The notes under the pieces are model-generated. The model ran no database searches. It was not told the origin of the DNA and was given only the letters and a program-made list of their open reading frames with translations. This document shows positions 11,050 through 16,340 of a stretch of DNA of 64,000 bases, piece after piece (the first letter of the stretch is position 1; each line of letters starts with the position of its first letter). Source of the DNA: Bdellovibrio sp. (GTDB lineage: Bacteria; Bdellovibrionota; Bdellovibrionia; Bdellovibrionales; Bdellovibrionaceae); the NCBI GenBank assembly GCA_039594295.1, contig JBCNNR010000018.1, positions 15,619 to 79,618 of the forward strand. The letters are read 5' to 3'. Both the position numbers and the translations under genes were made by a program.

Positions 11050-12489
11050 TTAGTAGATCCCGAGAACCTTCCACCAAGCAGCACCCAAGCCCATCCAAAT
11101 CACAATATAAACGATGGAGAAAATGAACCCAATTCTCCACCAATCTTTCAGCTCGACATATCCGACGCCATAGAGAATCGGTGCAGGTCCGTGCGCATAG
11201 TGAGTCAGGACTCCCGAGAGAGAGCCGGTGAATCCCAACATCAAGGCGACAAGTTTTCCCTCGATGCCGACAGCTATGGCGACGGCAAGCATCGCAGAAT
11301 ACATCGCCGCCACGTGAGCTGTCGCACTCGCAAAAAGATAGCGAGTGTAGAAGTAAACCAGAATCACCGCAGGGAAAGCCCAGTACCACGGCAGATGTCC
11401 AAGTTCTGCTTTGACGATGCCGCTGAACCAACTGACGAAGCCCAGTTGGTTCAGGCCCTCCGCCATCATGACCAAGGCAGAGAACCACACCATGGTGTCC
11501 CATGCACCTTTTTCGCCTTTCACGTCTTCCCAAGTTAAAACGCCGCTTAATAGTAAGAACGACAGACCAATCATCGCACCTACGGTGGCATCGATTTTCA
11601 ATTGCGGTCCAAAGATCCACATCACCAAAAGCATCACAAACGCGACAATCATCAACCATTCATTGCGAGTGATGGCGCCGAGTTCTTTCAACTTGGTTTT
11701 GGTTTCCTGTTGAACGGAGCGAGTGTCTTTTAATTCGGGAGGGAAGATCTTAAATAGCAACCACGGCGTCAGTGCGAGACATACCAGCCCTGGTACCAAG
11801 GCTGCCATTGCCCAGCCGCCCCAAGAGATTTCAACTCCCAAGTCTTTTGCGAATTTTTGGCACATGGAATTGGAGGCCGTTCCGGTGATAAACATCGCCG
11901 CTCCCAAAAGATTCGCATAGTACGAGTTTAAAGTTAAATAAGCGCCCATGCGGCGGTGAGTTTTTGGATCTGCAGGATCAGAACCAAAGCCCATGGAAAT
12001 AGATTTCATAATCGGCATCAAGATACCGCCGGCTCGCGCGGTATTACTTGGAGTCGCCGGTGCCAGCACTAAATCAGAGAATGCCAAACCATAGGCAATC
12101 CCCAAGGGAGTTTTGCCAAGCTTCACGATAAACCAATAGGCGATTCTTTTTCCCAAACCTGTTTTGATAAATCCGCGCGAAATAAAAAACGCGATGGTGA
12201 TCATCCAGATGGTGCCGTTACCAAAACCACTCAAAGCCAACTTAACTGATTGAGACATATCTCCCGGAGCACGCAATTGCAGGGCGGCGACCAAGGCAAT
12301 CGAGATCATCGAAATGCTTCCCATTGTCGCGGCTTTAATGACGATTCCAAAGATGGCGGAGATAAAGATCGCAAATAAATGCCAAGCACCCTCTTTTAAA
12401 CCTGCCGGAGGAGGTGTGATCCAGATAAGCGCACCTAAAACAAGCACAGCAATCCAGGCTTTGTAGTTCATTTCCTGATCTTTATTCAT
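11050..12489 (-). CDS. DASS family di/tricarboxylate transporter (CitT/TtdT/DIT1-like anion permease)
   Basis: W.LFAIF, LSGFGN..IW, GF.KTGLG.RIA, TPSNTAR.GG, TSAMFITG-like AAMFITGT, LFAS.TAH..A, THYA.GPAPI..G.GYV, WWK.LG terminus. Start 12489 or 12471. Confidence 0.92.
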   Translation of the reverse strand: MNKDQEMNYKAWIAVLVLGALIWITPPPAGLKEGAWHLFAIFISAIFGIVIKAATMGSISMISIALVAALQLRAPGDMSQSVKLALSGFGNGTIWMITIAFFISRGFIKTGLGKRIAYWFIVKLGKTPLGIAYGLAFSDLVLAPATPSNTARAGGILMPIMKSISMGFGSDPADPKTHRRMGAYLTLNSYYANLLGAAMFITGTASNSMCQKFAKDLGVEISWGGWAMAALVPGLVCLALTPWLLFKIFPPELKDTRSVQQETKTKLKELGAITRNEWLMIVAFVMLLVMWIFGPQLKIDATVGAMIGLSFLLLSGVLTWEDVKGEKGAWDTMVWFSALVMMAEGLNQLGFVSWFSGIVKAELGHLPWYWAFPAVILVYFYTRYLFASATAHVAAMYSAMLAVAIAVGIEGKLVALMLGFTGSLSGVLTHYAHGPAPILYGVGYVELKDWWRIGFIFSIVYIVIWMGLGAAWWKVLGIY

Positions 12490-12611
12490 GCGAATCCTTT
12501 CACTAAGCATTATCAGCGTAAAGGACTTGTTTCAGAGTGTAAAGGAACTTGAGTTTAATAAAAAAAACTCTGTCATGCTAAATGTCAGATGTTTGCTCAG
12601 GGGGAGTTGCT

Positions 12612-12935
12612 ATGTATCATCTTTTGATGCGCATTCGACAAGTTGGTTTTTCATCACGCTTAAAGGCTCACCGCAAGCTCCTTACTTTGGAGACTTTAAA
12701 ATTTATCGTCGAGTATCTTCGGGATGGAAATGCGCGGCTGGCGGCGTTCCGTTCTGGCGTTCCTGAAAACTATGCTTCCAAGCAAGGTGCGTGGCTTAAA
12801 AAGCATCCCATCGTTTTAGCAGCGATGGAAGCCGAGGTTGATGAGCGCGATGCTTTGCGCTTGCAGAAAGCGGTCGCGGAAATCGATCGTCAGATGGATA
12901 TTTGTAAAGATATTTTAGGATTGCAGGATTTTTAA
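12612..12935 (+). CDS. Phage small-terminase-like protein (Terminase_2-type N-terminal HTH), orphan
   Basis: LTLETLKFIVEYLRDGNARLAAFRSGVPENYASKQGAWLKKHPIVLAAM matches the TerS pattern LT.KQ..F..EYL.D.NAT.AA.RAGYS...A...G..LL..P.V. GGGGAG RBS before ATG 12612. Confidence 0.6.
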   Translation: MYHLLMRIRQVGFSSRLKAHRKLLTLETLKFIVEYLRDGNARLAAFRSGVPENYASKQGAWLKKHPIVLAAMEAEVDERDALRLQKAVAEIDRQMDICKDILGLQDF

Positions 12936-13891
12936 TGAAAATGTCGTTTTCCATGTGGGCGTTTTTCTTGGTTGTGTTTTCCTCCGGGTTGGTTCGGGCG
13001 CAGATGTTTTCTGGATTGATGCCGCCATCCAAACAGCGCGGGACTTTGACTTACACGGGCTCGGTTCAACCTGATACCAAATTTGATACGTCTGATAACA
13101 AAGCAAGCCTCAATCGCGGAACCGTGATTGCTAACATTCCGGTTTATAAAACCGAGAAGGAAAGTTGGAGTGTCAGTTTACTGGGACACTGGTTGGATCT
13201 TTATCCTGATCAGGAGGCGATGCCGGATCTTTATCAAGCCGATGTCGGCGTGACTTACAGTCGCATGGTCGATGAAAAAGCGTATTGGGCTTTGAATGGA
13301 AGTTTTGGCTCTGCCAGTGATAAACCGTTTAAAGATCCTTCAGTCGACACGATCGGGGGAAATTTCTTTTACATTGATCCAGTGGACGCGACCGCCAGTT
13401 GGGTCTATCTGGTTAATTACTCCAATAATCGTCCCATTCTCAATGGAATCCCTCTGCCAGGTTTTGCCTATATGTATACGCCTTCCAAAAGTTTCCGCGG
13501 TACCTATGGTGTGCCTTTTGCGATGATTTATTGGGAGTTCGTTGATAAGTGGTCATTGAATTTGTTTACGCTGATCCCGTGGGTGATTAAGTCTTCCGTC
13601 GATTATTCGATTGCGGGGCCCATGAAGGCTTCGCTAGGTTTGGATTTTTCACAGTCGACCTTTTATCTGTATGGCCGAGTGAACCGCAAAGAACGCCTGT
13701 TTTATGATGAAAAGCGTTTGTATGTGGGATTTAAAACACCGTTGTCGCAGCAATTTATCGCGGAAGTGGAAGCGGGTTATTCGTTTGATCGTCGTTATTT
13801 CCAAGACGAAAATTATGACATCAGTCCCAAGGATGCGATTCACCTGGGGACAAGTCCCTATCTGAAGTTACAATTAACAGCTTTATTTTAG
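12935..13891 (+). CDS. Outer-membrane beta-barrel protein (DUF6268-like)
   Basis: Signal peptide ending VRA/Q, alternating amphipathic beta strands, C-terminal Phe (LQLTALF). ATG overlaps the upstream stop. Confidence 0.65.
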   Translation: MKMSFSMWAFFLVVFSSGLVRAQMFSGLMPPSKQRGTLTYTGSVQPDTKFDTSDNKASLNRGTVIANIPVYKTEKESWSVSLLGHWLDLYPDQEAMPDLYQADVGVTYSRMVDEKAYWALNGSFGSASDKPFKDPSVDTIGGNFFYIDPVDATASWVYLVNYSNNRPILNGIPLPGFAYMYTPSKSFRGTYGVPFAMIYWEFVDKWSLNLFTLIPWVIKSSVDYSIAGPMKASLGLDFSQSTFYLYGRVNRKERLFYDEKRLYVGFKTPLSQQFIAEVEAGYSFDRRYFQDENYDISPKDAIHLGTSPYLKLQLTALF

Positions 13892-16043: not shown

Positions 16044-16340
16044 ATGAGTGCAGTGCTTTTTTGTTTCAGTTGCAAAAAAGAGATGTCCTTCGCAGGGAAT
16101 ATCGGCCGTCGTGAGGAATGCCCTCACTGTCGTGCCGATGTGCACGTCTGTAAAAACTGCGATTTCTATGATCCAAAAGTTTATAACGAGTGCCGGGAAA
16201 CACAGGCCGATGTTGTGCGCGAAAAAGATCGTGCGAATTTTTGCGATTACTTTACTCCACGCAAAGGTGGGGCGGGTCCGGAAGATCAGGCGGCAAAACT
16301 TCGTGCCGCGGCAGATGCTTTGTTTAATTTCAAAAAATAA
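16044..16340 (+). CDS. Small Cys-rich (putative zinc-binding) conserved hypothetical protein
   Basis: CFSC, CPHC, CKNC, C and ANFCDYF; 3 nt after glpX. Confidence 0.75.
   Translation: MSAVLFCFSCKKEMSFAGNIGRREECPHCRADVHVCKNCDFYDPKVYNECRETQADVVREKDRANFCDYFTPRKGGAGPEDQAAKLRAAADALFNFKK

Follow-up and report, generated by a model that had tools for sequence, protein, structure and literature searches.

A truncated small-terminase homologue maintained as a cellular gene in the Bdellovibrionaceae

The TerS-like gene and its surroundings

The window analysed here is a 64,000-nt stretch of the genome of Bdellovibrio sp. GCA_039594295.1 (contig JBCNNR010000018.1, positions 15,619-79,618 of the forward strand), and all coordinates below are positions within it unless stated otherwise. 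It contains an intact open reading frame on the forward strand at 12612..12935, 107 aa in its longest reading, that encodes a protein resembling the small subunit of phage terminases (TerS). Upstream and divergent from it lies a gene for a DASS transporter (Na+/sulfate-dicarboxylate symporter; 11050..12510, reverse strand), which is identified by a strong match to Na_sulph_symp (E 1e-155) and adjoins the TerS-like gene in the closest relatives only. Within the first codons of this transporter frame (12487-12510), a second ATG at 12489 (MNKDQEM...) is preceded by a GAAAGGA ribosome-binding box, and the corresponding frames of relatives open with MNKDQEM or MNNEKEM; the real DASS start is probably 12489, the longest-frame start at 12510 being less likely. 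Downstream lies a gene for a beta-barrel-like protein of 318 aa with a signal peptide (12935..13891, forward strand).

The first-pass annotation had placed the TerS-like gene between a DASS transporter and an outer-membrane barrel gene to which it was said to be translationally coupled. This arrangement was borne out, with the limit that the barrel assignment comes from weak matches to DUF6268 and YaiO that fall below the Pfam cut-offs. Coupling receives mixed support: the TAA stop of the TerS-like gene overlaps the ATG of the barrel gene as TAATG, and this overlap is retained in the four closest species, but the neighbours differ in most species, the barrel-like gene being adjacent only in the nearest clade and at two further loci (L008 and L012). 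The barrel-like protein also evolves much faster, with 69% identity where the TerS-like protein keeps 93%. The wider neighbours, encoding a subtilase, a CDP-alcohol phosphatidyltransferase (PgsA), a 4HBT thioesterase, a GlpX fructose-bisphosphatase and a histidine kinase, are ordinary cellular DNA, and no Rfam match was found between 10500 and 14800. As a separate observation, glpX is immediately followed by a gene for a cysteine-rich protein of 98 aa (CxxC...CPHC...CKNC; 16044-16340) without a Pfam match, and this holds for every relative that has retained the pgsA-thioesterase-glpX block (76-96% identity).

Comparison with orthologs bears on where translation begins. The orthologous proteins are almost all 102 aa long and open with MRIRQ(V/M)GFS. 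Because orthologs in more than 30 species start at the methionine of MRIRQ, which is Met6 in the present frame (ATG 12627), the real product is probably a protein of 102 aa rather than 107 aa; in many orthologs a Shine-Dalgarno box lies directly before this codon. The most likely coding sequence thus runs from 12627 to 12935 on the forward strand, stop included (MRIRQVGF...GLQDF), and its ortholog in B. bacteriovorus HD100 is Bd1909. The five extra codons of the longer reading (MYHLL; 12612..12626) are conserved only in the two closest genomes, homology begins at residues 4-6, and the codons lie in the spacer of a putative promoter and are probably untranslated. The 107-aa form keeps some plausibility because a GGGGGAG box stands 5 nt upstream of the 12612 ATG. 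The description of an intact 107-aa frame is therefore right as to the frame and probably five residues too long as to the protein.

The putative promoter (12592..12620, forward strand) was recognized by conservation and consists of a -35 box TTTGCT (12592-12597), a 17-nt spacer and a -10 box TATCAT (12615-12620). The TATCAT and TTGC boxes are conserved in loci L001-L005 and L034 while the surrounding bases vary; a consensus scanner did not call this -35/-10 pair. With TATCAT 6 nt before ATG 12627, the mRNA may be leaderless or nearly so. Reading the TTGC box as a sigma-54 element was ruled out, the GG-to-GC spacing being wrong. Between the divergent DASS and TerS-like genes stand two copies of AG(C/T)GTAAAGGA (12515..12546, forward strand), 21 bp or two helical turns apart. 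Both copies occur in the nearest relative (L002) and one copy, GTAAAGAAGCTTTGG, in L003-L005. Genome-wide, the GTAAAGGA repeat has 39 matches at up to one mismatch where about 18 would be expected under uniform base composition, and the 12-mer is not clearly enriched. The pair is a possible operator or regulator site. Across the upstream regions of the different species no conserved operator was found, and the only shared motif was the TTGC-type -35 box.

A small terminase reduced to its front part

The protein is homologous to the Terminase_2 small terminases and is, by homology, a member of the TerS superfamily. Pfam Terminase_2 (PF03592) matches it with 24.9 bits (E 3.5e-5) over profile positions 5-58 of 141 only, so that neither it nor the representative of its cluster (21.6 bits) reaches the gathering cut-off of 26.1 bits; some orthologs carry a precomputed PF03592 match. 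The PHROG TerS families 51 and 641 match the same part, and an NCBIfam search with the protein returned no match. When a profile of 18 family members was used, the three best PDB sequences were the small terminase G1P of Bacillus phage SF6 and its DNA-binding domain (E 0.005-0.03). An AlphaFold2 model (pLDDT 83 overall, above 90 across the helix-turn-helix (HTH) domain and terminal helix, low in the N-terminal arm) was matched best by Foldseek to the SF6 G1P DNA-binding domain (TM 0.78-0.85 normalized to the target, 33-34% identity, probability 1.0), and against viral models the named top matches were nearly all small terminases.

Sensitive profile comparison gave the clearest result. In a search of 1.8 billion representatives the family formed a single 50%-identity cluster whose next relatives are true TerS proteins. 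An hhalign comparison with 19 of these, all 19 of which pass Pfam Terminase_2, gave a probability of 99.4% (E 1e-21, 80 columns) and aligned family residues 22-101 (107-aa numbering) with TerS profile positions 4-86 of 139. The TerS-type HTH signature proposed from the letters alone thus proved to reflect real homology by Pfam, PHROG, PDB, Foldseek and hhalign. A scan of the genome with the Terminase_2 model found no second TerS. The nearest relatives from outside the family (P0126, P0128, P0132 and P0135; G032:C1:638962-639171) include true Terminase_2 TerS proteins of 260-380 aa, which carry two or three tandem HTH copies before one oligomerization core.

The same alignments define what has been kept. 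Three parts can be distinguished in the 102-aa form. Residues 1-20 (12627..12686, forward strand) form a basic arm with a pI of 12 and six Lys or Arg residues; it is family-specific, almost invariant in 18 diverse family members, lies outside the hhalign match and has no counterpart in phage TerS. It is followed by a four-helix, TerS-type HTH DNA-binding domain (12687..12830, forward strand), which corresponds to Pfam positions 5-58, resembles SF6 G1P in sequence and fold and is modelled with pLDDT above 90. The last part is an amphipathic helix with an invariant cysteine (12843..12917, forward strand), homologous by hhalign to the first core, or oligomerization, helix of TerS. The model shows it as a single helix at residues 78-102 (107-aa numbering), and all seven of its heptad a and d positions are hydrophobic (A, L, V, I, M, C, L), which upholds the earlier description of a short coiled-coil-like tail.

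Beyond this helix the protein stops. The cysteine of the first core helix is conserved in both the family and TerS, and the polypeptide ends nine residues after it, so that the last ~55 residues of TerS are missing: the second core helix, the beta region and the C-terminal TerL-binding tail. The alignment ends at position 86 of 139; the complete oligomerization core, the helical hairpin and beta region that build the 8-11-mer ring, is not present, nor is the segment that engages the large terminase (TerL). The protein is therefore the front 60% of a small terminase, HTH and first core helix only.

The SF6 protein provides a reference for what such a fragment might do. On its own, its DNA-binding domain contacts DNA weakly and without specificity, the ring being the source of avidity, and its Lys48 is essential for DNA binding (Greive et al., PMC4737164). 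In the Bdellovibrio family, Lys48 aligns with the near-invariant histidine of a K-K-H-P motif, directly after two invariant lysines. Because the Lys48 position falls within this conserved basic patch, the DNA-binding surface looks preserved. Since the isolated SF6 domain binds DNA weakly, avidity would have to come from oligomerization or added contacts, and the family appears to offer a heptad helix and a pI-12 arm in place of the lost ring-forming part.

Vertical inheritance without packaging machinery

When 25 genomes of the genus were searched in six frames, 22 yielded one intact copy of the gene, with identities of 64-97%. In a phylum sample of 301 genomes, including 18 of the genus and 18 from other genera of the family, the gene was present in 16 of the 18 Bdellovibrio genomes, in 13 of the 18 other-genus family genomes and in a few other Bdellovibrionota families, always as a full-length match (E 1e-47 to 1e-59). 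The reading frame is intact in all ~36 genomes that have the gene. Even with the threshold relaxed to E ≤ 1, nothing was matched in at least four near-complete genomes of the family; some lineages have thus lost the gene, and any role must be dispensable there.

Where the gene persists it is under strong purifying selection. Nei-Gojobori dN/dS was 0.007-0.07 in the 11 pairs with estimable dS, synonymous sites being saturated in the other 55 pairs, and dN did not exceed 0.15 in any comparison with the gene of this window. Between species, the identity of the gene to its orthologs changes in step with that of pgsA, the thioesterase gene and glpX. In nine genomes, including the present one, the pgsA-glpX block follows the TerS-like gene in the same orientation at a distance of 0.1-8 kb, the genes in between varying; more distant species have other neighbours. 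Among the 20-kb neighbourhoods of 15 species there was no constant gene partner, the barrel gene, the DASS gene and a pair of genes for an Smr-domain protein and a 317-aa protein each being clade-specific. No relative was detected by tblastn against 50,697 phage records or by a scan of IMG/VR with family motifs. Taken together, the gene is vertically inherited and cellular rather than mobile.

One of these clade-specific arrangements has a recurring layout. At three loci (L022, 9818-13497 of that locus, L023 and L026) the TerS-like gene is the last of a co-oriented run, after a gene for an unknown protein of 310-319 aa with an HEQNHR motif and no Pfam match. The run is headed by an Smr-domain gene in two of the three, L026 having an unrelated gene there, and it is divergent from a gene for a DEDD (RNase_T) exonuclease. 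In the present genome the Smr, 317-aa and DEDD genes are unlinked, on contigs C60, C49 and C40.

The first-pass annotation had reported no large terminase, portal, capsid or integrase in the window, and the wider search confirmed this across the genome for TerL, portal and HK97 capsid and across the contig for integrases. The present genome, which is 99.97% complete, has no match to Terminase_6N, TerL_ATPase, Terminase_3, GpA_ATPase, Phage_portal or the HK97 capsid, while named control genomes matched each TerL, portal and capsid family searched. Its four tyrosine recombinases are all on contigs other than that of the TerS-like gene, which carries neither an integrase nor a tyrosine recombinase. 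When the four TerL families were scanned in this genome and 25 relatives, the only matches within the genus were to Terminase_6N, in three of its 16 genomes, and one of these three (G005) lacks the TerS-like gene; the distribution of TerL across the genus does not follow that of the TerS-like gene. Tailed prophages are uncommon in Bdellovibrio. Weak Terminase_3 matches in five Bdellovibrio genomes, HD100 among them, were rejected as TerL: they fall in a DEAD-box helicase encoded beside redoxin and GidB genes. In HD100 (L017, 7719-9140 of that locus, at ~0.303 Mb) this helicase is a false-positive trap for prophage screens.

The gene accordingly sits among cellular neighbours in a genome with no portal or capsid, not in the packaging module of a phage, prophage or satellite. 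Nor does it look like an anti-phage defence gene, which would be expected to belong to a known family, to lie in an island and to be patchy and fast-evolving: PADLOC gave no match for the protein, the neighbours are housekeeping genes with no defence-island context, distribution is family-wide and dN/dS is about 0.02. It is an uncharacterized, lineage-restricted TerS variant that has neither the ring core and TerL-binding end of a small terminase nor a TerL partner or a phage context.

Expression and possible function

The HD100 ortholog Bd1909 (NP_968768, CAE79761; 1826590..1826898 of that genome) is both transcribed and translated. Its RPKM rises from 2.9 in attack phase to 108 in growth phase, and it was scored as growth-phase specific (Karunker et al. 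2013, PMC3627812 Table S1); as roughly two in three HD100 genes are induced in growth phase, this pattern is unspecific. The protein was detected in all four whole-cell measurements at an iBAQ of ~1.6e6, on a scale where typical proteins lie at 1e7-1e8 and a histone-like protein, ~1000-fold above Bd1909, at ~2e9 (Hocher et al. 2023, PMC10627809 source data). On this basis Bd1909 is translated and scarce, and its low abundance is in keeping with a specific factor rather than with a bulk nucleoid protein. No transcription-start entry for Bd1909 was found in the supplements of Karunker et al., the gene is not mentioned in the text of the literature searched, and it was not among the available entries of the Tn-seq and predation-proteome supplements. 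Bd1909 has so far gone unstudied.

We consider it rather probable that the gene encodes an exapted, C-terminally truncated TerS that acts as a low-copy, growth-phase-expressed cellular DNA-binding regulator and has no part in packaging. According to this model, an ancestor of the Bdellovibrionaceae would have captured a Terminase_2-type TerS gene, after which everything beyond the HTH and first core helix (second core helix, beta region and TerL-binding tail) would have disappeared from the lineage, and an invariant basic arm would have been acquired at the N-terminus. The product is a basic cytoplasmic protein of ~11.7 kDa whose C-terminal amphipathic helix probably assembles it into a small coiled-coil oligomer, a dimer or tetramer, that binds DNA, with the basic arm adding affinity; HTH domains and arm together would then bind specific DNA sites, as expected of a low-copy regulator. 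We infer the DNA binding, the helix-based oligomerization and the regulatory role; indirect support for a sequence-specific regulator comes from the basic patch at the position of SF6 Lys48, the low abundance, the heptad helix and the basic arm. Domestication of a TerS, as the first-pass annotation had it, is well supported by the real homology, the family-wide vertical inheritance, the purifying selection and the lack of surrounding phage genes.

Three functions had been suggested for the domesticated protein, and a plain DNA-binding regulator is the only one that fits the evidence, but no conserved operator was found upstream across species. Promotion of host-DNA transduction can be set aside: there is no TerL in the genome, TerL presence does not track the gene, and the ring-forming and TerL-engaging parts are missing, so nothing is left to let the protein promote it. 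Poisoning or redirection of phage packaging is argued against by the dN/dS of about 0.02, the single-copy conservation across the family, the lack of a PADLOC match and the lack of a defence island.

A different cellular role, in which the protein does not control transcription, was also considered. TerS proteins are matchmakers between DNA and an enzyme, and the HTH could recruit a non-terminase enzyme (a nuclease, ATPase or recombinase) to DNA, or the protein could act as a minor nucleoid protein that shapes DNA locally during filamentous growth or chromosome partition. Growth-phase expression agrees with such a role, as do the three species in which an Smr-domain gene and the 317-aa gene precede the TerS-like gene and face the DEDD exonuclease gene. 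However, this neighbourhood occurs in those three species only, the same genes being on other contigs here; the protein lacks the segment through which TerS contacts its enzyme; and a bulk nucleoid protein would be more abundant. We regard this explanation as unlikely.

Less probable again, and in our view very unlikely, is that the truncated TerS serves as a packaging decoy, competing at pac sites or co-assembling with the TerS of an incoming pac-type phage without recruiting TerL and so providing constitutive, dominant-negative immunity. A DNA-binding domain and first core helix without the TerL-binding end is the layout expected of a dominant-negative fragment, and satellites do interfere with the TerS of their helpers. 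Against this, the dN/dS of about 0.02 and a sequence that hardly varies across family-level divergence are the reverse of what an arms race would leave, and the single-copy distribution is core-like rather than patchy. The protein has neither a PADLOC match nor a defence-island context, tailed prophages are rare in the genus, and the nearest phage TerS is only ~30% identical, which makes co-assembly with diverse phage rings implausible. The broader proposition that a lineage-wide, dominant-negative TerS gives the Bdellovibrionaceae built-in immunity to pac-type tailed phages has, we think, a very slim chance of being correct; if true, it would be a chromosomal, non-mobile counterpart of the packaging-interference proteins of satellites.

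Two further readings, both highly improbable, are effectively excluded. The label 'terminase small subunit' that the NCBI and JGI pipelines give to some orthologs would agree with a working TerS of a prophage, satellite or gene transfer agent elsewhere in the genome, but the 99.97%-complete genome contains none of the four TerL families and neither a portal nor an HK97 capsid, relatives show no correlation between having a TerL and having this gene, and the ring-forming and TerL-binding parts are missing. Least probable of all is a functionless, decaying prophage remnant, as the truncated form of a phage protein might suggest: the frame is intact in all ~36 genomes, dN/dS is 0.007-0.07, the HD100 protein is detected by mass spectrometry, the chromosomal position beside housekeeping genes is conserved, and the single intact copy across the family contradicts the strain-specific scar that the first-pass annotation had named as its alternative.

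The regulator model can be placed beside several known systems. With the Terminase_2 small terminases of Bacillus phages SF6 and SPP1 (G1P; PDB 3ZQQ, 4ZC3 and 2CMP) the protein shares the four-helix HTH and the first core helix with its cysteine; it differs in lacking the last ~55 residues, in having the extra, invariant, basic 20-residue N-terminal arm, and in being encoded by a chromosomal, vertically inherited, single-copy gene without a TerL, portal or capsid partner. Proteins of phage satellites (SaPI TerS, PICI Rpp and SaPI Ppi) are likewise resident outside phages and related to, or acting on, TerS, and interference with packaging is in principle conceivable for a truncated TerS as well. 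Satellite proteins, however, are patchily distributed and belong to mobile, integrase-bearing islands, whereas the Bdellovibrio gene has a housekeeping context, no integrase on its contig, a family-wide distribution and a history of strong purifying selection.

The TerS of the gene transfer agent RcGTA (gp1) is likewise a TerS domesticated by a bacterial lineage. It has reportedly kept oligomerization and interaction with TerL and lost the classical DNA-binding domain. The Bdellovibrio protein is the reverse, with the DNA-binding domain kept and the rest lost, and no GTA-like structural cluster is present. It shares its layout with the N-terminal domain of LysR and its linker helix and with CII of phage lambda, which pair a compact HTH with a single long helix that forms dimers or tetramers. 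This likeness is an analogy of architecture only: small HTH regulators gave weak echoes (Foldseek E 0.3-1, TM ~0.4-0.49; CII sequence E 0.3-0.4), no sequence or fold match was significant, and the HTH is clearly of the TerS type.

For annotation, the label 'terminase small subunit' on some orthologs wrongly suggests prophage content in Bdellovibrio genomes. To our knowledge, the TerS proteins described from phages, satellites and gene transfer agents all have a packaging motor beside them. The family described here is a clear example of a DNA-recognition module of viral origin that has become a host protein and is carried near-unchanged, without the motor, across a family of predatory bacteria. 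If it has a regulatory role, the protein would be a regulator specific to its lineage, in a bacterium whose change from attack to growth phase is poorly understood.
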